From Clostridia bacterium (lineage in GTDB: Bacteria > Bacillota > Clostridia > Oscillospirales > CAG-272), in contig JAGAMD010000021.1 of NCBI GenBank assembly GCA_017624905.1, forward strand, positions 1,754-65,753: DNA of 64,000 bases, in the 5' to 3' direction. The notes beneath the pieces were generated by a model. That model was not told where the DNA came from and made no database searches. It saw only the letters and a list, made by a program, of their open reading frames with translations. Shown here piece by piece: positions 1 to 63,025 of this stretch (the stretch's first letter is position 1; each line of letters opens with the position of its first letter). Made by a program: the position numbers and the translations under genes.

Positions 1-864
1 GTAAAAGTGCCCTTGACCGTTTTCATCAATTGAATAGGTTTTTGGTTTTCCTGAATCATGTAAAAGCATTGACAGTCTTAAATGTAATATCGGTTCGATA
101 TTTTCAATTGCTACTGCTGTATGTGTCAACACATCATAAATATGATATTTATTATTTTGCTCAAAGCCATGCATTTCTTTTATTTGTGGGATTATTTCAC
201 CTATAATCTCATAATTTTCAAGAAGTGCTTTTTTTACATTTTTGCCGAGCAAAAATTTTGACAGCTCAATATTGATTCTTTCGCAAGAAATATTGTGCAA
301 AAGATGTGCACATTCTTTCATTGCATTTTTAGTATTCTCTTCAATTTCAAAGCCAAGCTGTGATGCAAAGCGTACACCACGAAGTATACGCAAGGCATCC
401 TCCTCAAAGCGTTTTTTAGGATCGCCTATTGCTTTGATAGTTTTGTTTTTTATATCGTTTTGACCACCAAAAAGGTCTATTATTCCCTCACTATCGTTAT
501 AAACAAGTGCGTTTATTGTAAAATCACGACGGGATAAATCATTTGAAAGATTCGTTGTAAATTCAACTCTTTCAGGATGACGGCTATCCTTATAATCCCC
601 ATCAATACGATAGGTTGTAATCTCTATTGGCTCTTTTTCGTAAACAAATGTAATTGTGCCGTGCTTTATTCCCGTGTCAACGGTATAATAGCCATCAAAG
701 ACCTTTTTCATTTGTGAAGGAGTTGCACTTGTTGTTATATCAAAGTCGTGTGCTTTCGTTCCCATTAGCATATCACGTACACTACCACCAACAACATATG
801 CCTCGTAGCCACTATTGTGAAGTAGCTCTAGTGCTTTTTTTGCACCTTGGCTCAATACTAGCAT
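1..864 (-). CDS. cca: CCA-adding enzyme (tRNA nucleotidyltransferase), N-terminal 288 codons; 3' part lies beyond the left edge
   Basis: Absent from the ORF track because it is open at the window edge. Hand translation of the minus strand from ATG 864-862, preceded by SD aaggaggag (plus-strand ctcctcctt 868-876), gives MLVLSQGAKKALELLHNSGYEAYVVGGSVRDMLMGTKAHDFDITT...RRDFTINAL...EDALRILRGVRFASQLGF. GGxVRD, DxD and RRDFTINA are class-II nucleotidyltransferase head motifs. The frame stays open to nt 1. Confidence 0.85.
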   Translation of the reverse strand, partial: MLVLSQGAKKALELLHNSGYEAYVVGGSVRDMLMGTKAHDFDITTSATPSQMKKVFDGYYTVDTGIKHGTITFVYEKEPIEITTYRIDGDYKDSRHPERVEFTTNLSNDLSRRDFTINALVYNDSEGIIDLFGGQNDIKNKTIKAIGDPKKRFEEDALRILRGVRFASQLGFEIEENTKNAMKECAHLLHNISCERINIELSKFLLGKNVKKALLENYEIIGEIIPQIKEMHGFEQNNKYHIYDVLTHTAVAIENIEPILHLRLSMLLHDSGKPKTYSIDENGQGHFY

Positions 865-3134: not shown

Positions 3135-4292
3135 ATGAGGCAAGGATTTAGAAAATATTTATCAACAATTGTGCTAATTCTGTTATGCGTTGTATGTGCT
3201 ACTATCTTTTACATAAACGCAAGTGACATATTTAAAGGAAACGAAAATAATGAAAACGGGAACGGTAACACTAATACAAATATAAATATTAACACAGATG
3301 TTCCTCCGCCTGAAATACCTGTCGCAGTAATTGATGCAAGTGGCACAATTCTTAGTGAATACTACTGTGATACCAATTTACGAGCCGAATGGGTAACACT
3401 TAAAAGCGAAGGCTCAGATATGATATATCTAGGTGTTGAATTATATCTTGACTCTCTACGCCAACCAAATGCTACTGACGGCTGTCTTATTGTAAACGGA
3501 CAAAAAACAGAGTTTAGCTATACGGCTAGTGAAGAAAGTCCTACTTTACTCGCGACCTGTACACAAAGCATACAATCGACCGATGATGTGAGTATGAGAA
3601 TTGAAGCTTATTTAAATGTTGATATAAAAGAAGACAATGGTGTCAGTCTATCTAGCCTTGAGCTATCCGGTAATATTGTTGCGAGTGAAAAATACAAGAC
3701 TATGGCACAAAGCTCAGCTATACCTCTTAAACACATATCGCAATATCCGGAGTTACCTAGTGGCGACGAGATAACCTCTCTTGCTATGGTGCTTTCATAT
3801 CTAAAATATGATGTTGATAAATGCGACCTTTGTGATGTTTATTTAGAAAAGGGTCCTGTTGGATATACTAATTTTAATGAGGCAAATGTTGGCAATCCAA
3901 GAAATGCGTATAATTCATATGGCTGTTTGCCTCCTGTAATCATAAAAGCTACTAACAAATATATTTACGCCAATGGTGGCAATTTCAAAGCGTATGATTA
4001 CTCAAAAACAAACACCGATGAGCTCTATTATGAGGTGAGCCAAGGTAATCCTGTTATTGTATGGGCGTGTGAGGATTTTGATATTACCCCGTCAATTTCT
4101 CGCATTTGGATAGTAGATGGAGAAACACTGTATCTAAAATCAAATATGGCTTGTATGGTGCTAATTGGTTACGATTTTGAAAAAAATACGGTAACTCTTG
4201 CAAACCCTGCCGGCAATATCTTTGATATTGATATAAGCTTGTTTGAGAAGCGTTTTATAGAAATGGGTGCTTACTCTATCGTTATAAAATAA
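3135..4292 (+). CDS. Membrane-anchored protein with C-terminal YvpB/BtrH-type C39-like papain-fold domain; catalytic residues apparently substituted
   Basis: 385 aa. SD aaggatg precedes the start. N-terminal TM helix (LSTIVLILLCVVCATIFYI), N/G/T-rich linker, then QYPELPSGDEITSLAMVLSYL...VIVW...MVLIGYD, which matches the C39_2-like pattern. Confidence 0.7.
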   Translation: MRQGFRKYLSTIVLILLCVVCATIFYINASDIFKGNENNENGNGNTNTNININTDVPPPEIPVAVIDASGTILSEYYCDTNLRAEWVTLKSEGSDMIYLGVELYLDSLRQPNATDGCLIVNGQKTEFSYTASEESPTLLATCTQSIQSTDDVSMRIEAYLNVDIKEDNGVSLSSLELSGNIVASEKYKTMAQSSAIPLKHISQYPELPSGDEITSLAMVLSYLKYDVDKCDLCDVYLEKGPVGYTNFNEANVGNPRNAYNSYGCLPPVIIKATNKYIYANGGNFKAYDYSKTNTDELYYEVSQGNPVIVWACEDFDITPSISRIWIVDGETLYLKSNMACMVLIGYDFEKNTVTLANPAGNIFDIDISLFEKRFIEMGAYSIVIK

Positions 4293-6426: not shown

Positions 6427-7335
6427 CTAGAACAAAATTGGAAATGTGAATAAAAGCTCTCTTAATTGCGTATAAATTGCTCCTGCCTGTGATATTGGCA
6501 ACGGATTTGTGCCCTTTCCACATTCAATTGTAAATGAGGGCTTATCGTATGTGTCGATCAGCCAATCGGTAAGACCTCCGTATGAAGCTGTATCGCTTGT
6601 TTCTGCAAGATTATATTTTGTCATTCGAGACATTATTTTAGATATATGTAGTGATTTTTTAGGAATTTTGCCACGTGATGAATAGTATATTTCCTCACCC
6701 TGTGTGTGAAGTGATAACACACCGTCAAGCGTGTCTAAATTATATCTAATGAAATTGCAAAGTGCACTTATCTCCGGCTCACTTTCTGCATACTCCCCGC
6801 TATATTTTGTTTTTCCGGCTAAAATCCCTCTTTCTCTTTCAAGTGATTTGTATTCGTCAAAAAAGGCATTATAATTATGGTTTAAATCAACACCCCTTGC
6901 GTTTGCTTGCCAAAGAGAAAAATCCTCACCACCATTATATTCTATAACTCTGTCTCTTATAGGATTTTCGTGTGCAACTCCGTGTAATCGATACTCTACT
7001 CCGTCCGGATTTAGCATTGGTACTATGTAGATTTTTCGCATTTTAAATAGATATCTTAAATTGATTTGACATATTTGTCCATAGCGCTCATATGCTGAAA
7101 TGTATTCCTTTATAAATCTAAGTAAGATTGATGTGCATATATTCTCGCAAGCGTGATGGGTAGCTACATATAAAACACTTTTTTGAGCACTCTTATTTCC
7201 AAGTGTAATTAGTGGGATAGGTCTGTTAAGTAAGCTTGTTTCAAGATAAGAAAAGTCAAAAAAATCGTATTTTTCACTAAGCTCATTTAGCTCCTTTATT
7301 AACGCTTCATAATCTAGCTCTTTTCTTTCGTTCAT
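6427..7335 (-). CDS. M14-family zinc carboxypeptidase (gamma-D-glutamyl-meso-diaminopimelate peptidase-like)
   Basis: 302 aa. HxxE zinc motif (THHACE), NPDGVEY, DLNHNY and LSLHTQGEEIYY are typical of M14 peptidases of the ENP1 type. Confidence 0.8.
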   Translation of the reverse strand: MNERKELDYEALIKELNELSEKYDFFDFSYLETSLLNRPIPLITLGNKSAQKSVLYVATHHACENICTSILLRFIKEYISAYERYGQICQINLRYLFKMRKIYIVPMLNPDGVEYRLHGVAHENPIRDRVIEYNGGEDFSLWQANARGVDLNHNYNAFFDEYKSLERERGILAGKTKYSGEYAESEPEISALCNFIRYNLDTLDGVLSLHTQGEEIYYSSRGKIPKKSLHISKIMSRMTKYNLAETSDTASYGGLTDWLIDTYDKPSFTIECGKGTNPLPISQAGAIYTQLRELLFTFPILF

Positions 7336-7446
7336 ATTTTCTCCTTTTGTGATAATTTACTGAATTTTTTCAAAAAAATAAAATTTTTCTTTATTTTTAT
7401 ATAAATATGTGTTACAATGTAGTATATTACTGACTTGAGAGGTTTT

Positions 7447-8244
7447 ATGAATAAAAGAACTTTTAAATTTTCAATATTGATTGCCGGTATCACGGTCGCA
7501 GTACATACAGCGTTCGTTATTGCACAGCTAATGCTTGATATATTCTCAAATAACACGGATTTACAAAATGCATTTGCAGATGTTTCTCAGTTCTTTGGAG
7601 GCATAGCAGAAATTACCGCTTATGCAATCGTGATTTATGCATTTACACACTTCAAGCCAGCACAGGCTTGTAAGTCGTTTATTGTAGCCGGTAGCGTACA
7701 TCTTTCATCAGTTATATTGACTCTTGTACCTGTTTGTATTCTTATTGGCATAACCGTGCCTGAGGTTGACGCAATGCTGTTCTATATGGCTGACGCTATA
7801 AGAAATGCATATTTAGGTGCTGTAAATCCTCGCATTATTCCTACTATTTTAGTGGCGGTAATTACATATCTTTGCACAATGAATGGCACAGCCGGTATAA
7901 AATCACTATTCAGCTTTAAAAATCCAATTCAAAAGGCGATGATATTCTCAACAATAGCTGTTTATCTTACTAAGGTTTTCACAGCGATTATTGTTAATGA
8001 TTTGACTATGATTACTACTGTTATTGTAAATGGTGGCTTGCTAACAGATACTCCGCTTATTACCGCCGGTGAGTTTTGGCTTGAAATGTGGAACACTGTA
8101 CTTTATCCACATGTTAAGTATCTTGTTATTTACCTCGTGCTTCAATACTTTGTTTTATTGCTTGTATATTTCCTTAACAAGAGATTTACAGAAAATACGC
8201 CTATTAAAAAAAGAACAAAAACTAACTCATTGGAGGAAATATGA
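7447..8244 (+). CDS. Polytopic membrane protein, unknown function
   Basis: The track ORF starts at TTG 7435. ATG 7447 follows SD gagagg. At least 6 hydrophobic segments. Its stop overlaps the next start (ATGA). Confidence 0.75.
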   Translation: MNKRTFKFSILIAGITVAVHTAFVIAQLMLDIFSNNTDLQNAFADVSQFFGGIAEITAYAIVIYAFTHFKPAQACKSFIVAGSVHLSSVILTLVPVCILIGITVPEVDAMLFYMADAIRNAYLGAVNPRIIPTILVAVITYLCTMNGTAGIKSLFSFKNPIQKAMIFSTIAVYLTKVFTAIIVNDLTMITTVIVNGGLLTDTPLITAGEFWLEMWNTVLYPHVKYLVIYLVLQYFVLLLVYFLNKRFTENTPIKKRTKTNSLEEI

Positions 8245-9689
8245 AAAAAAGAATTATCTCTATCGCACTTCTCGTTTTGATGATTATACCTGTTGTTTCA
8301 TCCTGCTTAAAATTCAAGGATGATAATGACAAAAAGTATGATTATGAATTGTCTGACTATATCACATTACCTAGCGACTATAAGGATCGTAAGCTTGATT
8401 TAGAGCTTGATGCTTTACAGGCTGCAATTGACACTTATCTATTGAAGGCTGTTCAAGAAAATTCAGATGGCTACAAATACAAGGTTTCTCGTGGTGATGA
8501 CATTTATGTTGACATTAATGTTTATGATGAGCTTATTATCACATCTGAAAACACTGATGCAGTTATAACTAAAAAGGGCAACAAAATTGATGCTCTATCA
8601 AAGTCCAACTATCTAATCGAAAACCTCGGTAGCTCTCCTTTGCCATATGCAATAGAGCTTGACCTAATCAATGGAAATTTAAACATTAAGGATGTTTTGG
8701 AGAGAAAATATTCTTATGACAAGCTTGAGGATTTTATTCCAAGTGAATACGAGGGAAAAAATATTTGGTTTGATATTAAAATCTTAAACAAAAAGGTTGA
8801 GCTTGGAGACGTCGTTTCTGTTGCTTACAAGGGATACCATGTAGACGAGGTTGGCAACAAGGCTAAGGACGAAAACGGCAAGGAAAAGGACCCATTTGAT
8901 TCAAGCACAGGAGCTTTCTTCTTCCCCGGTACTAAGCTAGCAATTGACGATTTTGAAAACAATCTCGTTGGTATGAAATTAAATGAGCAATTCTCTTTCT
9001 ATGCAACATTCCCGGATGATTACAGCGAAGAGGAATTCAAGGGTAAAAGAGTTCTTTTTGAGGTTACTATAAATAACGTTTATACACCACCTGTTTATAA
9101 TAGCAACTTTATTAAAACTTGGTTTCCTGATTACTCTTCCAGAAGTGAATTTGAAGCAAGTCTGAAAAAAGAGTTTATTATGACTAAAATGTATGATTAC
9201 GTTTTAGAAAATGCAGTTGTTAAAGAATATCCGGAGGCTGAATACAACTTGCACAAGGCTGAAATTGAGGAAGCAAGTGCTTCATTTGAGGAATACTACG
9301 GCTACACCTTTGATGAATACATCAAAAAAGCATACAATATGACTCGTGATGAATATATTAAGTCTCAAATGCTTACCGAAATGGTTTATTACACCGTTTC
9401 AAAGGAAAACGGCTTAATTCCTACAGAGGAAATGCTAACAAATGAAAAGCAAAATCTAATTTCTTACTACAAGGCACTTTATATGCAACAGCAAGGACTT
9501 GATGAAAAAACAGCTCTTGATACCGCAACAAGCTTTGTAAACAACTTAGGTGAAAGCTATATTTATGAAAATGTAATGTACAACATGGTTGAGGAATTTC
9601 TCTACAAATGTGCAACCGTTACAGAGCTACCTGCAACCTATGAATCCATCACAACAAAGATAGCAAGAGAAGAGGCTGTTACTCAGTAA
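8241..9689 (+). CDS. Lipoprotein with trigger-factor-like FKBP PPIase and C-terminal chaperone-arm regions
   Basis: 482 aa. Lipobox LVLMIIPVVSSC. GDVVSVAYKGY...FFFPGTKLAIDDFENNLVGMKLNEQFSFYATFPDDYSEEEFKGKRVLFEVTINNV follows the trigger-factor PPIase pattern. Confidence 0.7.
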   Translation: MKKRIISIALLVLMIIPVVSSCLKFKDDNDKKYDYELSDYITLPSDYKDRKLDLELDALQAAIDTYLLKAVQENSDGYKYKVSRGDDIYVDINVYDELIITSENTDAVITKKGNKIDALSKSNYLIENLGSSPLPYAIELDLINGNLNIKDVLERKYSYDKLEDFIPSEYEGKNIWFDIKILNKKVELGDVVSVAYKGYHVDEVGNKAKDENGKEKDPFDSSTGAFFFPGTKLAIDDFENNLVGMKLNEQFSFYATFPDDYSEEEFKGKRVLFEVTINNVYTPPVYNSNFIKTWFPDYSSRSEFEASLKKEFIMTKMYDYVLENAVVKEYPEAEYNLHKAEIEEASASFEEYYGYTFDEYIKKAYNMTRDEYIKSQMLTEMVYYTVSKENGLIPTEEMLTNEKQNLISYYKALYMQQQGLDEKTALDTATSFVNNLGESYIYENVMYNMVEEFLYKCATVTELPATYESITTKIAREEAVTQ

Positions 9690-9692
9690 TAT

Positions 9693-9730
9693 AAAAAAGA
9701 GAGATGTTTTTCATCTCTCTTTATTTTTTT
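9693..9730. terminator. Bidirectional rho-independent terminator
   Basis: Stem agagagatg (9698-9706) / catctctct (9712-9720), flanked by an A-run and a T-run, between convergent genes. Confidence 0.8.
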
Positions 9731-10328
9731 ATTTTCTTTTATCGCTTTCGAGGTAGTATGTAGCTTCCATGTCGGCTGTTGACAAAGCGAATGCAAGAGG
9801 ATACATTTCAAATGCCTTGCTTACGTTGTTTGTTGCCATTGCGTTTTCTGTATTTGAATATCCCATATGGTATCTGATTGCAAATGCCTCTTCTCTTGTT
9901 AGCTTTATAAATGGTGAAATCATATATACGCTTTTTTCACCATGACCATATGGAAGATTGTCGTCAAACTCATAGTATGGCACCTTTTCCCAAACGCCCT
10001 GCTCATTTTTTGCGTTGCGATAGCTAACCTTATATATATTCATTTTACATAGGTCGTGTAAAAGTGCTACTATGGCAATTGACTCCTCGCTATAATTTAG
10101 CTTATATTTTTCTCTTACTACGTCTCTATCAAGGTAAGCAACCAAGCACTCATAAACGTTGATTGAGTGCTCACAGAGTCCGCCCTCGTATGCACTGTGA
10201 TATCTTGCACTTGCAGGTGCTGTAAAAAAGTCAGAGGATGGTGAACAGATAAAGTCAAGTAGCTTGTCAGCACCCTCTCTTTTTATTTTGGATTTAAATA
10301 TTTCTATAAATTTATCTCTTGCGTTCAT
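9729..10328 (-). CDS. HD-domain phosphohydrolase
   Basis: 199 aa. H...HD signature (CEHSINV...ALLHDLCK). Confidence 0.8.
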   Translation of the reverse strand: MNARDKFIEIFKSKIKREGADKLLDFICSPSSDFFTAPASARYHSAYEGGLCEHSINVYECLVAYLDRDVVREKYKLNYSEESIAIVALLHDLCKMNIYKVSYRNAKNEQGVWEKVPYYEFDDNLPYGHGEKSVYMISPFIKLTREEAFAIRYHMGYSNTENAMATNNVSKAFEMYPLAFALSTADMEATYYLESDKRK

Positions 10329-27096: not shown

Positions 27097-28967
27097 AGAA
27101 TGAACACCTATCTTGCTTTATGATTTCAGCAATCATATTTGCTAATCTGTCAGTATCTAATGGAACAGTTGTCAAATTATCGCTATATGAATAATTTGTG
27201 TTCGCATACTCTTTTAACACAAAGCCCAAAATGAACGCTGTCAAGTTACATGGCATAAATCCGTAAGGTTCCGCCTTTAAGAATTCATAAATCTTAGCAA
27301 TTGTTATTCTATCTGTCTTTTTGAATTCTTCGTTGATAAAGCTGTCAATTGCTATCTTCAATGAAGAAATGTAAGAAGGTGATTTTGTCCAATATTCAGG
27401 AATGTTCCACGCTTTATTTAGTGCATTTTCAAGTTTTGTAGCTTCGTTGCTTGAACGGTATGTTCCCTTTGTTTCTTGTGTTATACCGCAAGTTGCACCA
27501 GATGCTAAAGAATTTGCATCAAACATTGTGTTGATAACGTTTGTAAACTCACCTTCAAGACAGTTAGGATAATGGAATTTGTTGATTTCCATCAACTTAG
27601 CAAACAAATCGGACAAGTTTGCAAATGATTTCCTTGGAGATATGCGAAAGACCATCATAAATTTCTTCATATGATGCTGGTTTTCCTATAGAAAGCATAT
27701 GGTTTTCAATTTCTTGAGAGTGATTGATTTCTACATTTTCTTCAGTCGACATATAGTTTTCAAAGAAATAATATTTTCCTTTTTCTGCAGAAAACTTAAT
27801 ATATTCTCTTAACATCATTTCGTCTGTTAACGAAAAGCAATACACAAATACATCTGTTAGCTCAGTGTATATTGCCTTGTAATAAAGCACTTTCTTTCCA
27901 CTTGAAAACTGTTCCTCAATATAATTAAACAATTTCGTGTTAGTTTCGGAATCGATAATTCCCTCTGCTGGGAATAAACGATCCTGATAATAAACACCAC
28001 ATTTTTTCAATCTCGAAATCAGTTCATCATCAGACAACTCTATTTTTTCATCATACAAATCTGAATATGTGTCTCTAAAAATTTCAATATCAATTGAGTC
28101 AAAAGTCATTCCGTTGCGGAATCTATTCATCAAAACAGAAACATATTTTTCTTTATCAAAATCATCCGACTCTGATTTTTCATCTTTTGCATCAATTTCA
28201 ATATCATCAATATTTCCTGCATTAAAATAGCATTTATCATTTTTTATAACGACCCAGGAAGTGCTCTTTAATATTTCTACAACTAATTCTTTGTCGCAAT
28301 TTGGTCCAATATTTGCAAAAATTCTATCTAATGAAACACCCTGTGCATCATCAAAAACTTTAGATATAACATACAATTTTTGATATAGCAACGGATGTTT
28401 TTGTTTGTAATATTCCTCATCCTTTACTTCTTCTCGCTTGATTGTAACTGTAGTCGATTTATATCTATACTTGTCATCAACTTTTTCTATCCATTCAGAG
28501 TTATCAAGAGCTATTTGGACATTAGCTCTACCATACATTCCTTTTAGCTGTGAGCCTATTTCGAAGAAAGTATACCATTTGTCAGGATTCTTTCTAAAAA
28601 TTTCAAAAAGTTCCTTGTAAAGAGCTGTTGGCACCTCTGTTTTGGTTTTTGTTTCTTGCTCGGAGCTCTCAACCGAAGTTTTTTCATCGGACTGACTATT
28701 AAGTACCAAAAATTCATCGAATAGTTTCCATGTTTTTTCAAAAATTTCACAAGCGTATTTATGAATTGCTCTAAAAAACTTATTTCCAAGGAGAGTGGTT
28801 CTTACATATTTAAACTCTTTTTGCGTTTGTATAGCCCAAAGACCTAACTTATATATCTTTCTGGAAACAATAAAGCTTGAAACCTCATCGTAAGCTTCTA
28901 GGACAACAGATACAGATATCCCTTTAATTTGCTTTTCAGAAAGCCATTTCCCAAATTTTTCTCTCAT
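27068..28967 (-). pseudogene. Large unknown-function gene, frameshifted (about 27600-27660) and 3'-truncated by fusion to the ABC remnant
   Basis: Track ORFs 27597..28967 and 27068..27670 overlap in different frames and read as one protein. The last 16 codons (CSFCARGYNLYL*) are out-of-frame ABC-gene sequence. Confidence 0.7.
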
Positions 28968-29006
28968 AATAAAATCACCTAATTTTTTTGTTTTAAATTG
29001 CGATTA

Positions 29007-29231
29007 TTATTCATTTACAGGATTAATATCGTCATTAACCATTTCCATAATGTCAGAAATATCACAATTCAACGCATTGCATATTTTGTGAAGAACATCG
29101 GTATTAACGTTTTCATTTTTGGCAAGTTTAGTTACAGTTGCGGAACTAATATTTGCTGCAAGCTGTAAATCTTTTTTCTTCATGTCTTTGTCGATCAGCA
29201 ATTTCCAAAGTTTTTTGTAGCTTATAGCCAT
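29007..29231 (-). CDS. XRE/Cro-type HTH regulator
   Basis: 74 aa. KKKDLQLAANISSATVTKLAKNENVNTDVLHKICNALNCDISDIME. Its own promoter is TTGACT-17-TATAAT on the minus strand around 29250-29280. Confidence 0.88.
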   Translation of the reverse strand: MAISYKKLWKLLIDKDMKKKDLQLAANISSATVTKLAKNENVNTDVLHKICNALNCDISDIMEMVNDDINPVNE

Positions 29232-29312
29232 TATTTCACCTCAAAAATAGAATATAAGAATATTATATAATATTATTCGACAAAAGTCAATGAAAATCCT
29301 GAGAACGCTAGA

Positions 29313-29666
29313 TTATTCTTCATTTTTGCTTAACTTTTCGATTATTCTTTCTCTAGATCTCCTTCGAACGGCTCGTTCTTCCCAATCGTACTTTAAATCC
29401 GATGAATTAAACTCAAATAATTCCAAAAGTAGATTTCTAAAATCGTTAATTGTATCTCGCTTATAGCAAAAATAGCAACAGAAAGTATTACTGTCTTCAA
29501 ATACTGTCAATCTGTTTTCCTTGTTACAAAATGGGCATCTACCTATATATCGTGTTCCCTCTTTAGAAAGTTTGATGAATTTTGAAACATATTCAACCAA
29601 GTTCTTATTCTCTGGGAATTCCATAATTTCCTTGTATATTATTTCTCGTGTTTGGTCCATAAACAA
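29313..29666 (-). CDS. Small protein with a primase-type (CHC2-like, here C4) zinc finger
   Basis: 117 aa. GRCPFCNKENRLTVFEDSNTFCCYFCYKRDTINDF parallels the DnaG zinc-finger layout CPFHxExTPSFxV...CFGCGxxGDxxxF. Confidence 0.7.
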   Translation of the reverse strand: MFMDQTREIIYKEIMEFPENKNLVEYVSKFIKLSKEGTRYIGRCPFCNKENRLTVFEDSNTFCCYFCYKRDTINDFRNLLLELFEFNSSDLKYDWEERAVRRRSRERIIEKLSKNEE

Positions 29667-29724
29667 CCTCCAAAAGTATATTCAGAATAATTATAACACA
29701 TCGTAATCTTTCTTGCAACATTGA

Positions 29725-29747
29725 GATGTACCAAAAATGCGACAGTT
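29725..29747. repeat. 23-bp direct repeat, copy 1 (GATGTACCAAAAATGCGACAGTT)
   Basis: Matches 29867-29889 at 22 of 23 positions. Lies just upstream of the minus-strand TTGCAA-17-TATAAT promoter of the zinc-finger gene. Confidence 0.8.
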
Positions 29748-29866
29748 GATTTTTGATTTGATTTTCGTGCTTATATCTTTGTTTTGCGTAGCAAAAGTTG
29801 GTGGTTGGGAAGCGTATTTTGGGTGGAAATTGTAGGAATTTTTGAGAAAATTGATTAAGATTTGAT

Positions 29867-29889
29867 GATGTACTAAAAATGCGACAGTT
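29867..29889. repeat. 23-bp direct repeat, copy 2 (GATGTACTAAAAATGCGACAGTT)
   Basis: Ends 5 nt before the -35 element of the recombinase promoter. Confidence 0.8.
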
Positions 29890-45622: not shown

Positions 45623-45624
45623 CA

Positions 45625-45652
45625 GAAAAGGCAACCGATTGGTTGCCTTTTC
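45625..45652. terminator. Bidirectional terminator
   Basis: aaggcaacc-gatt-ggttgcctt. Confidence 0.8.
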
Positions 45653-46036
45653 TTATTTCTCTAGCTTTGCATAGGTTTTTTGTGTAAATTTTTCGCTATA
45701 CACAATAAATCTTTCGTGCGTGCCTTCACCAATGAGACCACATTCATCATATGCTTTCACAAAAAAACAGACACGTCTACCCTCATTTTCGGTCACCTCT
45801 GCCTCAACTGTAACCTCCATACCAACAGGAGTTGCACTTAAATGCTTGACATTCATAAGTGTACCAACAGTTGTTGCACCCGCCTCTAAGCTATCGGAAA
45901 TGCATTTATATGCACATTCCTCCATTAAAGCAATCATACGAGGCGTTGCAAGTACCTCTAATTCTCCACTACCAAAAGTCTTAGCAGTGTCGCTTGAATT
46001 AACCGTCATTTTGAGTTGATTCTTCTTCCCCGTCAT
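45653..46036 (-). CDS. Hotdog-fold thioesterase (COG5496-like)
   Basis: ATG 46036 follows aaggagag. TAKTFGSGELEVLATPRMIALMEE pattern. Overlaps the 3' end of the upstream XRE gene by 38 nt. Confidence 0.75.
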   Translation of the reverse strand: MTGKKNQLKMTVNSSDTAKTFGSGELEVLATPRMIALMEECAYKCISDSLEAGATTVGTLMNVKHLSATPVGMEVTVEAEVTENEGRRVCFFVKAYDECGLIGEGTHERFIVYSEKFTQKTYAKLEK

Positions 46037-58749: not shown

Positions 58750-60705
58750 TTATTGTGGGAATGTTGCCTTGGTAGCTACGTTATTTTGAGCTGTGCCACA
58801 GAGATATGTTACATCATTTCCTGTAACGATAAACGCTCCACAGTAAAGCTGTGATGCTCTTGTTACTCCTGTTACTTTAATTTCCATTATTGTATATTCA
58901 GTATTAAGGAATGTGCCTATTACTGTTGTTTCATTTGCTAAATTAGCCTCACCGTTTATTGCTGTGATTAGGTTGCCATCTATTGGATTATCGTTAGCAT
59001 CAGCTGCAAGACCTGCTACAACACCAAAGTTATATGAATCCTTGTTGCCTGTTAACTCAGCATATAGTGCAAGTGCTTCTTTATCAACAGATGTTCTTTG
59101 ATATATACCTGTGTATTCGTTTCCATTCATTTCATATGAATAGCCTGTGCTTTTAAAGATTGCTGCAATTTCCTTTACTTCGCCTTCTTGCTTGCAGTTT
59201 TGACATGTTTCTGTTGCTATAATTACAGCAGTTATGCTTGCTGTTCCGCCCTCTTCGTTAGTGAACTCCCATACGTTTACGTGTTGTGGGTTTTCAAGCT
59301 CTACTGTGTCGCCACATCTTGAACATACACCTGTACAGTAGTTGTCGCCTTCTTGTGCTGCATCATGCTTGTCGTTATAGAATGCCTTACATGGGCTATA
59401 TCCATAAACAAGGTATGAGCCAGATTTTGTCTCAAGAGTTTCATACTCACCTAAAGAAACGACTGTAGAATTTTTAAGTGGATTGTTATTAGTTCCATTC
59501 GCATTTGCTTTGAAAGTGTTAGCTGTTGTTTCGTCACCTGTAAAATAAATAGTAACCGCATTTGGCCATTCCTTAAACACGCCTTGCGAAAATGTAGTAA
59601 CACTTGAAGGTATATACACAGTTTCGGTTCCGCATTTTTCAAATGCATGAGCACCAAGAGATGTTAAATTTGCGGGCATTACAATTATATCAACGTTGGT
59701 TTTCTGAGCATCAGAAGCTGCAAACGCATTGTCGCCAAGTACAGTTACACCATTGGGAACAACTAACTTTTCTTGATTAATCACGTGACCAGCAAATGCA
59801 TATTTACCAATTGTTGTAACGGTAGAAGGAAGTTCCAACTTGGTTAGTTTGTTGCCTTGAAATGCATATTCTTCAATGGTTACCAAGCTTGTATCTCCAG
59901 CATCAATATCAGCTAAAGCATAACAACGATTAAACGCACCCATTTCCAAATGAGTCAAGCTCGCTGGCAAATCAACGCTTGTAAGAACCTTAGCATCCTC
60001 AAAAGCATATTTGCCTATTATTGTTAGTTTTGAATCTTTAGGAATAACAAAAGTTGTCATAGAAGTGCAACCAACAAGTGCCCAACGGTCAATTTTTTCA
60101 ACTGTTTTTGGAATTGAAAGGGCAGTAAGAGATGAACAATTTGCGAACACACCATTTTCAGTGTTATAAGTACTACTAAAATCGCCAGATGCATCTAGAA
60201 TTGTGATTTTTGTGTTTTCAAGATTTTCTACTGTTGTAAGTTTTGAGCAAGACTTAAACACGCCCTCGCCTAAAGATGTAAGTGTAGATGGAAACTTCAC
60301 TGTCAACAAAGTGGTTGTTTTTTCCAAAGCATAATTGCCGACAGTTGTTATTCCTTCAGGAACTTGAATGTGAATAACAGAATATCTTAGGCCATTAGCA
60401 TTGGAATAGGTTAAACCAAGCTGTGTCTTAATAGCATCGTTAAGCTTAAAGGTAAAGGTTGTATTGTCAGCCAATACATAGTAAGTTGGGAAGGTATAGT
60501 ATTTGCCATCAGAACCCACAAGAACTACTTTTGATGTATAATCGGTAAAGCTAGTTGGTTTGCTGCTTTCCAACGCGTCAACTGTAGAAAGTGTGCCGTA
60601 TCCGTTATCATCTGAAGCGACAAAGTTATCTGCGCTTGCTGAAATAGCAAACAAGCAAACTAGTGACATAACAACTAAAAGTGTCAATAAAAGTTTCTTT
60701 TTCAT
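58750..60705 (-). CDS. Secreted BspA-type leucine-rich-repeat protein, paralog 4 (divergent C-terminus)
   Basis: 651 aa. Signal peptide MKKKLLLTLLVVMSLVCLFAISASA. LRR_5-like repeats (LPSTVTTIGKYAFAG, IPKTVEKIDRWALVGCTSM). Cys-rich segment CTGVCSRCGD...CQNCKQEG. Confidence 0.85.
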   Translation of the reverse strand: MKKKLLLTLLVVMSLVCLFAISASADNFVASDDNGYGTLSTVDALESSKPTSFTDYTSKVVLVGSDGKYYTFPTYYVLADNTTFTFKLNDAIKTQLGLTYSNANGLRYSVIHIQVPEGITTVGNYALEKTTTLLTVKFPSTLTSLGEGVFKSCSKLTTVENLENTKITILDASGDFSSTYNTENGVFANCSSLTALSIPKTVEKIDRWALVGCTSMTTFVIPKDSKLTIIGKYAFEDAKVLTSVDLPASLTHLEMGAFNRCYALADIDAGDTSLVTIEEYAFQGNKLTKLELPSTVTTIGKYAFAGHVINQEKLVVPNGVTVLGDNAFAASDAQKTNVDIIVMPANLTSLGAHAFEKCGTETVYIPSSVTTFSQGVFKEWPNAVTIYFTGDETTANTFKANANGTNNNPLKNSTVVSLGEYETLETKSGSYLVYGYSPCKAFYNDKHDAAQEGDNYCTGVCSRCGDTVELENPQHVNVWEFTNEEGGTASITAVIIATETCQNCKQEGEVKEIAAIFKSTGYSYEMNGNEYTGIYQRTSVDKEALALYAELTGNKDSYNFGVVAGLAADANDNPIDGNLITAINGEANLANETTVIGTFLNTEYTIMEIKVTGVTRASQLYCGAFIVTGNDVTYLCGTAQNNVATKATFPQ

Positions 60706-60830
60706 AAATTTTTCTCCTTAAGAAATATTTTTCACATTTATATTATAGCATAATTGACTAAATTTTGGCAATTGGCATTGTGTATAAAAAAGCTAGTGGA
60801 TTTTTGTTTGTTTTGCACAAAGCAGACAGA

Positions 60831-61435
60831 GGAGGAGAGGGAGCAAATATATATAGTATTCTACTCATCCGACACCACAGGTGCCACCTTCCCTGCTAGG
60901 GAAGGCTTATAATAATGTTTGTGTAGGGTAGGCAATTTGCCTCACGTTATAGATTGTGTGGATTGTTTGACGGACAACCAATGGTTGCCCTACAAGGATG
61001 ACAGATAACATTGTCATTTCGACCGAGCATAGCGAGTGGAGAAATCTCAAAATAGACCCATTCGACTACACTTCGTTTCGCTCAGGGTGACAAAATAATT
61101 TGCTGAAAACTCCTCATTATGCCTTTTCAGCCGAAGTGGAGAAATCTTGTTATAAGGCGGGAGGATGATATCCTCCCCTACATTTGTGCGTAGTGCTTGG
61201 AACGGGAGGAGTAAGTACATATAGTTTTCTACTCATCCGACACCACAGGTGCCACCTTCCCTGCTAGGGAAGGCTTACAATATTGTCATTCCAACTAAGA
61301 ATTGCGAGTGGTTTTAAAGAATTTTTGAGATTCTATCGCTACGCTCCAGAATGACATAAGAGAGTTTGTCATTTTGACTGGAGTGGAGAAATCTTGTTAC
61401 TATGCGGGAGGAGCAAGCCCCTCCCCTACAAGGTT
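60831..61435. repeat. ORF-free nest of at least three interspersed short repeat families in both orientations
   Basis: - 64-nt direct repeat 60851-60914 / 61219-61282 (62 of 64 identical).
- 47-nt repeat 61136-61182 / 61383-61430.
- TGTCATT...GAGTGGAGAAATCT units, plus-oriented at 61012-61048, 61284-61311 and 61367-61397, and minus-oriented at 61059-61092 and 61327-61356.
- Hairpin+CCCTACA units at 60975-60994, 61159-61182 and 61406-61430, with an inverted copy at 60921-60945. Confidence 0.85.
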
Positions 61436-61460
61436 AAACCGCTATTCGGCATTGGCTTAT

Positions 61461-61496
61461 AAAAGAAAAGTCGCACACGTGGTGCGACTTTTTTGA
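61461..61496. terminator. Bidirectional terminator (ends nfnAB; could also end a plus-strand transcript of the repeat nest)
   Basis: aaaagaaaa-gtcgcac-acgtg-gtgcgac-tttttt. Confidence 0.8.
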
Positions 61497-61525
61497 TTTA
61501 TTGTTTGTTTTGATACAAAGAAAAA

Positions 61526-61594
61526 CCCCTCAGTCACCTATCGGCGACAGCTCCGTGCAAGGCATACCACAAGGGCGCCTTTACAAAGGAGCCT
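61526..61594. repeat. 70-nt interspersed repeat element, copy 2
   Basis: cccctcagtcacctatcggcgacagctccgtgcaaggcataccacaagggcgcctttacaaaggagcct aligns end to end with 4892-4961. It lies between the nfnB stop (61598) and its terminator. Confidence 0.7.
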
Positions 61595-61597
61595 AGT

Positions 61598-63025
61598 TTA
61601 GTCAAATGCTCTTTTTTTGCTTTGAATGTAGTCGTCAATTGCTGAGGCTGCGGTTTTACCTGCACCCATTGCCAAAATTACGGTTGCTGCACCTGTTACG
61701 GCATCACCGCCGGCATATATTCCCTCTTTTGAGGTTAAGCCGTTTTCATCAACGATAATTCCACCCCAATATTCTGTATCAAGTCCCTCGGTTGTAGACT
61801 TAATAAGTGGGTTTGGAGATGTACCAAGCGACATAATTACGCAATCAACATCGAGAATATGTTCACTATCTTTTTTAACAACAGGACGGCGTCTGCCACT
61901 TTCATCAGGTTCGCCAAGCTCCATTTCCACGCATTTCATTCCACCTACGCTTAGATTTCCGGGGCTACGTGGATTTTCTTTATCAACAAATGGCAAAATT
62001 TCAGTTGGGTTTGTCAATGTCTTAAAGATAATTCCCTCTTCAATTGCGTGTTCAACCTCTTCCTTTCGTGCCGGAAGCTCTTCCATACCACGACGGTAAA
62101 CAATATAAACCTCAGCACCCATACGTCTAGCACAACGAGCTGCGTCCATAGCAACGTTGCCACCACCAACCACCGCTACACGAGTGTAGGACATAATCGG
62201 AGTATCGCTTTCTTGCTTATATGCTTTCATAAGATTGATTCTTGTCAAATATTCATTAGCTGAGAAGACACCCTTTAAATTTTCTCCCGGAATACCCATA
62301 AATTTAGGTAGTCCTGCACCCGAACCGATAAAGATAGCCTCAAAGCCATATTCGTGCATTAGCTCGTCAATTGAAAGTGTTTTACCAACTACTATATTTG
62401 TATTAATTTTAACGCCGAGAGCTTTTAGTCCCTCAATTTCTTTTTTTACAACATCCTTTGGTAAACGGAATTCCGGAATTCCGTAAACCAACACTCCACC
62501 TGCTGTATGTAGAGCCTCAAAAATTGTAACATCATAGCCTCTCTTTGCAAGGTCTGATGCACAGCTAAGACCGGCAGGTCCCGAGCCAATTATAGCGACC
62601 CTGTGTCCGTTTTTGAGTGGTTTTACAGGTTCTTTTTGTGAGTTTTTATTGTGATAATCTGCTACAAAGCGTTCAAGTCTGCCGATTGCAACAGGCTCTC
62701 CCTTTATTCCTCTTACGCATCGTCCCTCGCATTGATTTTCTTGTGGGCAAACACGTCCGCAAATAGCCGGCAAGGATGATGATTTTAGTATAATCTCGTA
62801 TGCCTCCTCAAATTTCCCTTCTGCGACCTTAGAAATAAAGTCCGGAATTGCAATTTTTACAGGACAGCCACGCATACACATTTTATTTTTACAATTAAGG
62901 CATCTTTTTGCCTCGTCTATTGCTTGTTCCTCTGTATAGCCAAGAGCTACCTCATCAAAGTTTTTAATTCTTTCACTTGGCTCTTGGGTTGGCATAGGAT
63001 TTTTTACAAGTGACATATTCGGCAT
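61598..63025 (-). CDS. nfnB: NfnB / GltD-like NADPH-dependent oxidoreductase (glutamate synthase small-chain family)
   Basis: 475 aa. Two Fe-S Cys clusters (CLNCKNKMCMRGCPV; CGRVCPQENQCEGRC). Dinucleotide folds VAIIGSGPAGLS and VAVVGGGNVAMD. Confidence 0.88.
   Translation of the reverse strand: MPNMSLVKNPMPTQEPSERIKNFDEVALGYTEEQAIDEAKRCLNCKNKMCMRGCPVKIAIPDFISKVAEGKFEEAYEIILKSSSLPAICGRVCPQENQCEGRCVRGIKGEPVAIGRLERFVADYHNKNSQKEPVKPLKNGHRVAIIGSGPAGLSCASDLAKRGYDVTIFEALHTAGGVLVYGIPEFRLPKDVVKKEIEGLKALGVKINTNIVVGKTLSIDELMHEYGFEAIFIGSGAGLPKFMGIPGENLKGVFSANEYLTRINLMKAYKQESDTPIMSYTRVAVVGGGNVAMDAARCARRMGAEVYIVYRRGMEELPARKEEVEHAIEEGIIFKTLTNPTEILPFVDKENPRSPGNLSVGGMKCVEMELGEPDESGRRRPVVKKDSEHILDVDCVIMSLGTSPNPLIKSTTEGLDTEYWGGIIVDENGLTSKEGIYAGGDAVTGAATVILAMGAGKTAASAIDDYIQSKKRAFD

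Follow-up and report, generated by a model that had tools for sequence, protein, structure and literature searches.

A probable mosaic array of short palindromic repeats between nfnB and a hypervariable BspA-type LRR gene in a Clostridia bacterium

What fills an 892-nt spacer that encodes no protein, is raised in G+C and is crowded with hairpins? The question is raised by a 64,000-nt stretch of DNA from a Clostridia bacterium (GenBank assembly GCA_017624905.1, contig JAGAMD010000021.1, positions 1,754 to 65,753 of the forward strand; hereafter the window, whose own numbering is used throughout), at 60706-61597, between the gene nfnB and a gene for a BspA-type leucine-rich repeat (LRR) protein. 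The original prediction, made from the letters alone, offered two readings of the repeats found there: a landing pad for several small non-autonomous elements, or a long structured or processed RNA locus. The first reading stands. At least three of the repeat families are dispersed in unrelated genomes, the units have no associated coding partner, and the sets occupying one spacer differ between close relatives. The region is probably a mosaic array of repetitive extragenic palindromes (REPs), resembling the bacterial interspersed mosaic elements (BIMEs) of enterobacteria and the intergenic mosaic elements of Neisseria (NIMEs), set between the nfnB terminator and the promoter of the hypervariable LRR gene. 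Its inventory (Table 1) comprises 5-6 palindromic units with a YGTC tag, among which are two head-to-head dimers, four REP hairpins with a GTAG tag (TGTAGGG…/…CCCTACA), one 97-nt double-hairpin insert of a third family, and a locally duplicated 79-nt repeat, D1.

The gap is free of open reading frames (ORFs) of 60 aa or more, as had been stated, the largest having 57 aa. The raised G+C content also survives a recount (28 of 60 nt are G or C at 60841-60900), and the nest of repeats as a whole has 44.1% G+C against 36.8% for the window; other ORF-free gaps of at least 100 nt mostly have 18-36%, the exceptions being two tRNA-bearing gaps (39-43%) and a single gap at 41%. Since nfnB and the LRR gene are both on the minus strand, the nest sits after the nfnB terminator and before the LRR promoter. 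Its motifs are much commoner than expected by chance, none of its repeats recurs with a significant score elsewhere in the window, blastn against plasmid and phage collections gives no match, and literature queries with sequence strings return unrelated primer matches only.

The YGTC-tagged hairpins have the consensus YGTC-AT-NNN-GA-S-C-GNA-G-(T)-S'-GA-N'N'N'-AT-C-TC, in which S pairs with S' and NNN with N'N'N'. In heterodimer 1 a plus unit, TGTCATTTCGACC-GAGCATAGCGAG-TGGAGAAATCTC (61012-61049), faces a minus unit, TGTCACCCTGAGCGAAACGAAGTG… (61052-61092); the minus unit of heterodimer 2 (61326-61356) reads TGTCATTCTGGAGCGTAGCGATAGAATCTC. Units of the GAGTGGAGAAATCT type are located at 61034, 61134 and 61381, and the window holds four matches to this motif, three of them in the gap, against 0.55 expected. 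On the plus strand, TGTC tags are seen at 61012, 61284 and 61367; the minus strand has them at 61092 and 61356. The original prediction had described TGTCATTyyGAC units, three in plus and two in minus orientation; the units are real, and the count needs correction to four plus (61012, a degenerate one at 61120, 61284 and 61367) and two minus (ending at 61092 and 61356). In alignment A2 the first column of the tag is T in at least 90% and otherwise C or A, while columns 2-4 are invariably GTC; CGTC-tagged variants are present in the related locus L257.

This family extends far outside the lineage. A scan of one genome per species with the pattern TGTCATTYYGA-N5-20-GTGGAGAAATCT finds at least 120 loci, a lower bound, from at least 12 phyla among the matches listed, plus three viral contigs. 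Listed hosts include Clostridia, Negativicutes, Bacteroidota, Verrucomicrobiota, Planctomycetota, six Patescibacteria lineages, Cloacimonadota, Marinimicrobia, Chloroflexota, Bifidobacterium, Pseudomonadota and Treponema, and a core identical to that of heterodimer 1 is found in a Cloacimonadota metagenome-assembled genome (MAG; L019). GTAG and third-family units, taken up below, are likewise dispersed in unrelated genomes, so these three families are not unique to this locus; it was uniqueness, combined with a lack of transcription, that had been named in advance as counting against the original prediction. Across 139 YGTC copies the foot of the hairpin is conserved and the top is variable, with forms of 28 nt, of 36-38 nt with a GCGAAGC-type mini-hairpin, and of 40-43 nt whose G+C stem is longer. 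In the short form the loop is either 5 nt long (GAAGT or AACGT) or a GNA triloop accompanied by a bulged T, and the forms of 36-43 nt carry longer apical hairpins. Sister subfamilies alter the foot on both sides at once (ATTCT/AGAAT, ATCCC/GGGAT, ATCTC/GAGAT, ATGTC/GACAT and others), and such compensated-foot hairpins number 369 against 26 in shuffled sequence (854 kb).

Covariation among copies, a check proposed along with the original prediction, is strong in the YGTC stem. In a set of 84 unique units, chosen without any complementarity requirement, 97.4% of cells are paired (82.0 ± 1.0% in 500 shuffles), double-sided changes number 97 (32 in shuffles) and the covariation score is 0.441 (0.163 in shuffles); by each of these measures 0 of the 500 shuffles reach the observed value. 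When the partners are displaced by 1-3 columns, pairing falls to 27-59%. The stem begins with an A-U and then a U-A pair, invariant in 84/84, and continues through three covarying pairs, a tandem G·A and two more pairs, nine stacked in all. The tandem G·A/A·G is invariant in the core and G-T pairs are tolerated in stems; in the 3' tail, CTC or CTT, the C never varies and is followed by T in at least 90% of units.

R1, a covariance model trained on these 84 units, scores the plus unit of heterodimer 1 at 40.5 bits (E = 2e-8) and its minus unit at 9.9 bits, heterodimer 2 at 20.6 bits (E = 0.004), and the two copies of a second local repeat, D2a and D2b, at 10.7 bits for the degenerate unit of the former and 37.7 bits for the unit of the latter, which is itself in the training set. 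Outside the nest, R1 finds nothing better than E = 0.04 in the window; the sequence AGTCATTCCGTTGCGGAATCTA at 28104-28126 (plus strand, inside a coding region) is a marginal match at that level (16.7 bits) and could be chance or a relic intragenic unit.

The units are non-autonomous, and no gene travels with them: when the 1,540 ORFs within 1.5 kb of the 139 units are clustered, no family occurs at more than 5 loci. Small GIY-YIG nucleases, considered as possible partners of YGTC units, are dropped on the same clustering, which shows no recurrent family. By a crude ORF model, about 2/3 of the units lie outside ORFs of at least 100 aa. The same model, used for the proposed check of orientation bias, places 34 units across phyla in one orientation to the upstream gene and 25 in the other, no clear bias. 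At four loci (L089, ~730-800, minus strand; L057; L121; L058) the 5' half of the unit (TGTCATTTCGACCGAGC and a further 7-8 nt) is repeated in tandem with a period of ~24 directly upstream of a complete unit, with the break at the hairpin tip.

A place for these units is offered by Di Nocera, De Gregorio & Rocco (2013, BMC Genomics 14:522, PMC3733652), who distinguish two superfamilies of REPs by their tag, GTAG or CGTC. In the CGTC superfamily the tag is often TGTC (CCTC is another variant), stems of 8-9 bp start with A-T and then T-A, loops have 4-5 nt and are variable in some families, and a short tail has the consensus CCA; its members, mostly head-to-head dimers, are reported from five phyla with no dedicated transposase, and include the Neisseria repeat dRS3 as family CGTC-1 and the Rickettsia repeats RPE-4 and RPE-6 (PMC3733652). 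The units described here share the YGTC tag, the A-T/T-A stem start, the short loop, the head-to-head dimers (two in the window, many more at other loci), the occurrence in several phyla and the absence of a linked transposase. They depart from the superfamily in being hosted by a Clostridia MAG, Firmicutes not being among the five reported phyla, and in their CTC tail, tandem G·A/A·G mismatch, GNA triloop with bulged T and apparently low copy number here. A 2025 survey records REP-like palindromes across bacterial and archaeal phyla, Bacillota included (PMC12306157). The TGTCATTTCGACC-pattern scan also picks up exact dRS3-type units (TGTC-ATTCCC-N8-GGGAAT-CCA) far outside Neisseria, in a Saccharibacteria MAG (L090) and an Anaerohalosphaeraceae MAG (L101); only in these is the tail CCA seen.

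Interleaved with the YGTC units are the GTAG-tagged hairpins, noticed earlier as hairpin units with CCCTACA. Their TGTAGGG/CCCTACA motif is confirmed at 60922, 60988, 61176 and 61424, which puts four of the five copies in the 64-kb window inside the nest. The units read T-GTAG-GG… on one or the other strand and have G+C-rich stems of 7-9 bp with loops of 2-3 nt. The GTAG heterodimer has the left arm TGTAGGG-TAGGCAA..TTGCCT and the right arm GGACAACC-AAT-GGTTGCC-CTACA, and the singlets of D2a (GGGAGGAT-GAT-ATCCTCCC-CTACA) and D2b (GGGAGGAGC-AA-GCCCCTCCC-CTACA) both end in CCTCCCCTACA, at 61172-61182 and 61420-61430. These hairpins are stabler than shuffles, with z from -2.6 to -3.0 (-3.0 and -2.6 for the heterodimer, -3.0 for D2a). 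A hairpin identical to that of D2b occurs twice, with different flanks, in the viral contig L233, and TGTAGGGG…CCCCTACA doublets like the GTAG heterodimer occur in the viral contigs L172, L176, L193 and L231. Many of the 121 viral matches to a GGGAGG…CCTCCCCTACA scan are tRNA T-arm/acceptor sequences or chance, so only recurrent hairpin variants and dimers are taken as evidence. A generic scan for GTAG plus hairpin over the whole window gives 8 matches, not above the 9.4 in shuffles; only the clustering of TGTAGGG is significant.

In the GTAG tag at the foot, the G+C-rich 7-9 bp stem, the 2-3 nt loop, the head-to-head doublets with spacers of 20-100 nt and the mosaic clusters between unidirectional genes, these hairpins are like the REPs, REP doublets forming hairpins (REPINs) and BIMEs of E. 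coli and Pseudomonas, a class with stems of 6-13 bp and very short loops that is mobilised by REP-associated tyrosine transposases (RAYTs), whose genes REPs typically flank. Unlike those, they are found in a different host phylum, they are interleaved and twice fused with YGTC units, and no RAYT is seen among the scanned ORFs of the window or in the gene tables of related contigs.

The third family has the form GCTCCCC-loop-GGGGAGC-TGTCGCC-loop-GGCGAC-TGAGGGG, and the 97-nt insert that represents it here contains …GGAGC-TGTCGCC-GATA-GGTGAC-TGAGGGG…. It is found in 13 viral loci, including one contig with 9 copies. On L139 (IMGVR_UViG_3300032167_004945, 7120-9850) nine third-family copies, several in tandem with a period of ~208 nt, alternate with CCTCCCC…GGGGAGG hairpins. 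Being small, non-coding, dispersed, bounded by inverted termini and polymorphic for insertion, the units of the nest recall miniature inverted-repeat transposable elements (MITEs) such as Correia, RUP and BOX. They differ from MITEs in measuring 28-43 nt and in conserving a hairpin foot rather than a transposase-binding terminal inverted repeat. No target-site duplication is definable at one clean filled/empty site (the 97-nt insert, between TAA and TAAA), and the search finds no parent insertion sequence and no recurrent neighbouring transposase among the 1,540 ORFs.

Part of the nest is a matter of local duplication. The 64-nt direct repeat of the original prediction (60851-60914 and 61219-61282, 62/64 identical) is confirmed, together with the GGAGGAG ahead of each copy (60831 and 61205), and extends to the 79 nt of D1 at 92% identity. 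Copy D1a consists of two adjacent hairpins, CCTTCCC-5-GGGAAGG and GACACC-3-GGTGCC, with folding z of -2.5 (DNA) and -3.0 (RNA); the values for D1b are -2.7 and -3.5. D1 is found only upstream of LRR genes and only within this lineage, and in the related strain locus L002, where two LRR genes stand in tandem, it lies upstream of both and makes up the distal portion of a ~205-nt promoter module. Viral contigs yield 0 matches to D1, and JGI metagenomes a single chance match in a high-G+C contig; with no real match in either and occurrence linked to LRR genes only, D1 is rejected as a dispersed or mobile element. What has been duplicated, locally, is the LRR upstream module's distal 79 nt. Likewise, the two hairpins with preserved stems and differing loops reported at 61136-61182 and 61383-61430 proved to reflect a local duplicate, D2 (61120-61165 and 61367-61412, 78% identical). 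Such duplications, and the tandem ones of L002 and L257, invite the view that the whole nest records nothing but local slippage and duplication, without mobile families. That view is very improbable: YGTC, GTAG and third-family units have different flanks in the many unrelated genomes that carry them, which refutes it for three of the four components and leaves it valid only for D1 and D2, and different subfamilies fill the same spacer in close relatives.

Table 1. Features of the spacer between nfnB and the LRR gene, in window coordinates
Feature	Positions	Strand	Remarks
Predicted sigma-70 promoter of the LRR gene	60742..60771	-	TTGCCA-18-TATAAT with TG, 11/12 matches; proximal to the nest and not within it
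D1a, promoter-proximal copy of the 79-nt repeat	60840..60918	.	Part of the LRR upstream module
GTAG-tagged REP head-to-head heterodimer	60922..60994	.	TGTAGGG…CCCTACA outward; spacer ~26 nt
YGTC-tagged REP head-to-head heterodimer 1	61012..61092	.	Unit 61012-61049 (+) and degenerate unit 61052-61092 (-)
D2a: degenerate YGTC unit 61120-61149, then GTAG-type singlet 61158-61182	61120..61182	+	
D1b, promoter-distal orphan copy of the 79-nt repeat	61208..61286	.	
YGTC-tagged REP head-to-head heterodimer 2	61284..61356	.	Decayed unit from 61284 (+) and unit 61326-61356 (-)
D2b: short-form YGTC unit 61367-61396, then GTAG-type singlet 61406-61430	61367..61430	+	
Bidirectional intrinsic terminator of nfnB	61464..61494	.	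AAAAGTCGCAC-N-GTGCGACTTTT
97-nt third-family insert, between the nfnB stop codon and the nfnB terminator	61501..61597	-	

Related genomes supply a series of states for this spacer, next to an NfnB that in the window, which derives from an uncultured Clostridia MAG, is 81% identical to that of Candidatus Coproplasma. Four loci (L001, L003-L005; NfnB 100%) have the 892-nt spacer of the window, with its 9-10 units. L002 (NfnB 100%) has 446 nt and 3 units, is missing both the 97-nt insert and a 368-nt block that has D1 as its boundary, and shows a 20-nt tandem duplication in the spacer of heterodimer 2. At L258/L259 (NfnB 95%) the spacer of 437 nt holds the third-family insert, one GTAG unit, one decayed YGTC unit and no D1. 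L257 (NfnB 97%) has 819 nt with at least 9 YGTC/CGTC units of other subfamilies and a duplicated terminator, and neither GTAG units nor D1. At L262 (NfnB 93%) the nfnB terminator leads directly, over 196 nt, to the promoter of GFO_IDH; there is no LRR gene and there are 0 units. The 97-nt insert is thus missing in L002 and L262 and present in L258/L259, while the nfnB terminator is kept in L002, L258 and L262 and the LRR promoter sequence upstream of the LRR genes in L002, L257, L258 and L263, the last being a second locus of the same LRR subfamily in the genome of L257 (GCA_052836005.1). The subfamily of heterodimer 2 recurs, with a compensated stem (ATCCT/AGGAT), in L257 and L263.

The array therefore turns over fast, single units being present or absent between close strains. 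Some of the change takes the form of whole blocks duplicated or deleted between copies of a repeat, as with the 368-nt segment missing from L002 (D1b plus 60919-61207) and a duplication of ~214 nt in L257 that takes in the terminator. That terminator, predicted as strong and bidirectional and found as such, itself acts much as a repeat module does. The L257 array (6429-7247) contains it in duplicate, and it has a degenerate second copy in L258 (6640-6720), and recurs in near-identical form after an unrelated Ribonuc_L-PSP gene at the start of the L263 nest (3545-3575).

The comparison of strains also bears on two other proposals. Inverted repeats upstream of a surface-protein gene could be recombination sites of an invertible, phase-variable promoter switch, and an inverted pair of 25 nt does exist (60922-60946 and 61158-61182). 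Its arms are poorly matched (72% complementary), the predicted LRR promoter lies outside the inverted repeats, and the region is in one orientation, at 99.9-100% identity, in four independent assemblies, for which reason the switch is rejected as scarcely credible. The original prediction had further proposed that the repeats displaced an AraC partner expected next to the LRR gene. This finds no support: the ancestral-like locus L262 has neither an LRR nor an AraC gene, and L263 has a repeat nest and no AraC. Pseudogene remnants of AraC or LRR genes in the gap were sought by tblastn and rejected, none being found.

The alternative of a long structured RNA fares poorly. Rfam 15 yields only chance-level matches over 60000-62200 with E up to 10 (at most 24.5 bits against gathering scores of 43-90), and at gathering level the whole window contains only five tRNAs, all outside the nest, so that the Rfam scan proposed earlier turned up nothing relevant. 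Each module is independent of the others, strains having gained or lost them one by one, and the whole region is missing in the relative with a 93% identical NfnB. A more modest function at the RNA level may be considered, in which the hairpins would serve as 3' stabilisers or terminators of nfnB read-through, or in which a plus-strand RNA of ~85 nt would start from 61374-61403. A promoter-like TTGACT-18-TACTAT with TG does lie there, in D2b (+), partly formed by the YGTC unit; it is kept in L002 and faces the bidirectional terminator ~60 nt downstream, so that a ~85-nt transcript is possible. The tolerance of G-T pairs, the single CGTC unit within an operon spacer of L001 and L257 (see below) and the argument of Di Nocera et al. 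that many REPs are transcribed (PMC3733652) point the same way. Such a function is nonetheless improbable, given the lack of any Rfam match, the occurrence of units in both orientations here and without clear bias across phyla, the position of the nest past a strong terminator and ahead of the LRR promoter, and the dispensability of the region in relatives. A dedicated RNA product is not likely to be what the region is for.

The operon unit just mentioned is an intra-operon REP singlet, polymorphic between lineages. A single CGTC unit, with a new ribosome-binding site, occupies the 53-63-nt spacer between GFO_IDH and CoaE in L001 (15613-15642) and L257 (10681-10710); in L258 and L262 the two genes overlap (ATGA) and no CGTC unit is present.

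The closest parallel to the setting of the nest is found in Neisseria, where NIME arrays differ from strain to strain and are found flanking surface genes that are variable (Bentley et al. 2007, PLoS Genet 3:e23, PMC1797815). Here too, hairpins of the dRS3 superfamily form an array split by other short repeats, with unit number and length variable at a syntenic position (spacers of 196, 437, 446, 819 and 892 nt, 0 to at least 9 units), with locally raised G+C and next to unusually divergent surface-protein genes. The differences are that this array is much smaller, that the hairpins are separated by GTAG REPs, D1 and unique DNA and not by defined RS families, that the hairpins belong to the same superfamily but do not have the dRS3 sequence (ATTCCC-N8-GGGAAT), and that NIMEs are described as Neisseria-specific and the host here belongs to the Clostridia. 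In Neisseria a phage-encoded transposase/recombinase integrates filamentous phage into dRS3; here the comparison is one of sequence only.

The parallel raises the question of whether the nest promotes recombination of variable LRR cassettes, as a functional array of the NIME type. LRR proteins at the syntenic position (651-766 aa) are only 32-62% identical where NfnB is 92-100% identical, although the LRR promoter and signal peptide are conserved among them. Both same-subfamily LRR loci of GCA_052836005.1 have YGTC nests, each running from a near-identical GTCGCAC…GCGAC terminator to the LRR promoter, and 14 of the 16 significant R1 matches in the clade lie in such LRR-associated nests. The window, moreover, fuses the left flank of one locus to the right flank of another just past the LRR terminator. 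Against this, the breakpoints of the LRR mosaic between the window and L002 fall within the gene, whose signal peptide and C-terminus are conserved, and not in the nest; nests are missing from more distant LRR paralogues, two AraC-linked ones of the window among them; no recombinase has been identified; and the nest may just hitch-hike with the cassette. An active role in recombination thus seems unlikely, if less so than an RNA-level function. The same low standing is given to its stronger form, that YGTC nests might be boundary modules of a mobile, hypervariable BspA-type LRR cassette in gut Clostridia, with the foot as recognition site of a widespread candidate recombinase or nuclease.

The fusion itself is seen as a synteny break. 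The window matches L001/L003 at 99.8-100% over 5.3 kb, up to 58724, 26 nt past the LRR stop codon at 58750; beyond this point L001 (14302) and L003 run into GFO_IDH-CoaE, and the window runs into TrpR and the his operon, genes that GCA_052836005.1 has downstream of its second LRR locus, L263 (6242-6400). The break represents either recombination between two LRR cassettes or a MAG mis-join.

Several observations weigh against the reading of the region as a REP mosaic. The density in the clade is low, one nest plus occasional singlets in 64 kb of genome and ~100 kb of relatives' contigs, and with 64 kb of the genome covered, the high genome-wide copy number that is a hallmark of REPs is not demonstrable. 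No RAYT, IS110-type or other mobilising gene is found among the 24 window ORFs by Pfam or in the related-contig gene tables. For no single unit is there a clean empty/filled site with a target duplication, so insertion is deduced from presence and absence, and recombination could explain part of the pattern. The short unpaired tail is CTC where the published consensus is CCA, and the YGTC units of the window are partly decayed, with nearest-neighbour folding that is not unusually stable (z -0.35 to -1.6).

If the region is a REP mosaic, a mechanism can be outlined. Single units would arrive through a trans-acting enzyme that recognises the hairpin foot, perhaps a RAYT-like HUH tyrosine transposase for the GTAG type, and they may pile up here because neither coding nor promoter function constrains the spacer. 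The main consequences would be that the LRR cassette is unstable and locally prone to recombination at its 5' edge, and that extra hairpins are in place that can block nfnB read-through. Both what mobilises the units and any promotion of LRR cassette exchange by the array are things that we infer.

REP mosaics, the two tag superfamilies and strain-variable arrays beside surface genes are known already (PMC3733652, PMC1797815). What is new is the host range of the precise YGTC hairpin, the conservation of its non-canonical core, and surroundings of a NIME-like kind next to BspA-type LRR genes in one lineage of gut Clostridia. Clostridia, Patescibacteria, Actinomycetota and other phyla are thereby added to the range of the CGTC and GTAG REP superfamilies. 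For annotation, G+C-rich, ORF-free, hairpin-dense spacers in gut Firmicutes MAGs should be read as REP mosaics and not as RNA genes or pseudogenes, and they are likely points of assembly breakage and mis-joining. The related loci form a natural series from 0 to ~10 units, with the array placed beside a fast-evolving host-interaction gene. The locus also illustrates an old puzzle, that of a hairpin foot of ~25 nt near-identical in at least 12 phyla without a linked gene. Should nests take part in cassette exchange, they would represent a general mechanism of surface variation in gut commensals and a handle on the old question of what mobilises CGTC-type REPs; should they be boundary modules, this would be a NIME-like diversity-generating arrangement outside Neisseria.

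Two other gaps of the window, 28968-29878 (911 nt, 30% G+C) and 45623-45998 (376 nt, 41% G+C, unusually high for non-coding DNA here), contain no ORF of at least 150 aa, no Rfam gathering-level match and no REP units. Upstream of nadK, a Mn-catalase (cotJC-like) gene is cut to ~128 aa in L002 (1-8082) and L262 (1-1594), adjoining phage genes (lysozyme, DUF859) in the former and a large serine recombinase in the latter, which suggests that a prophage-like element is integrated in this spore-coat gene in some strains.

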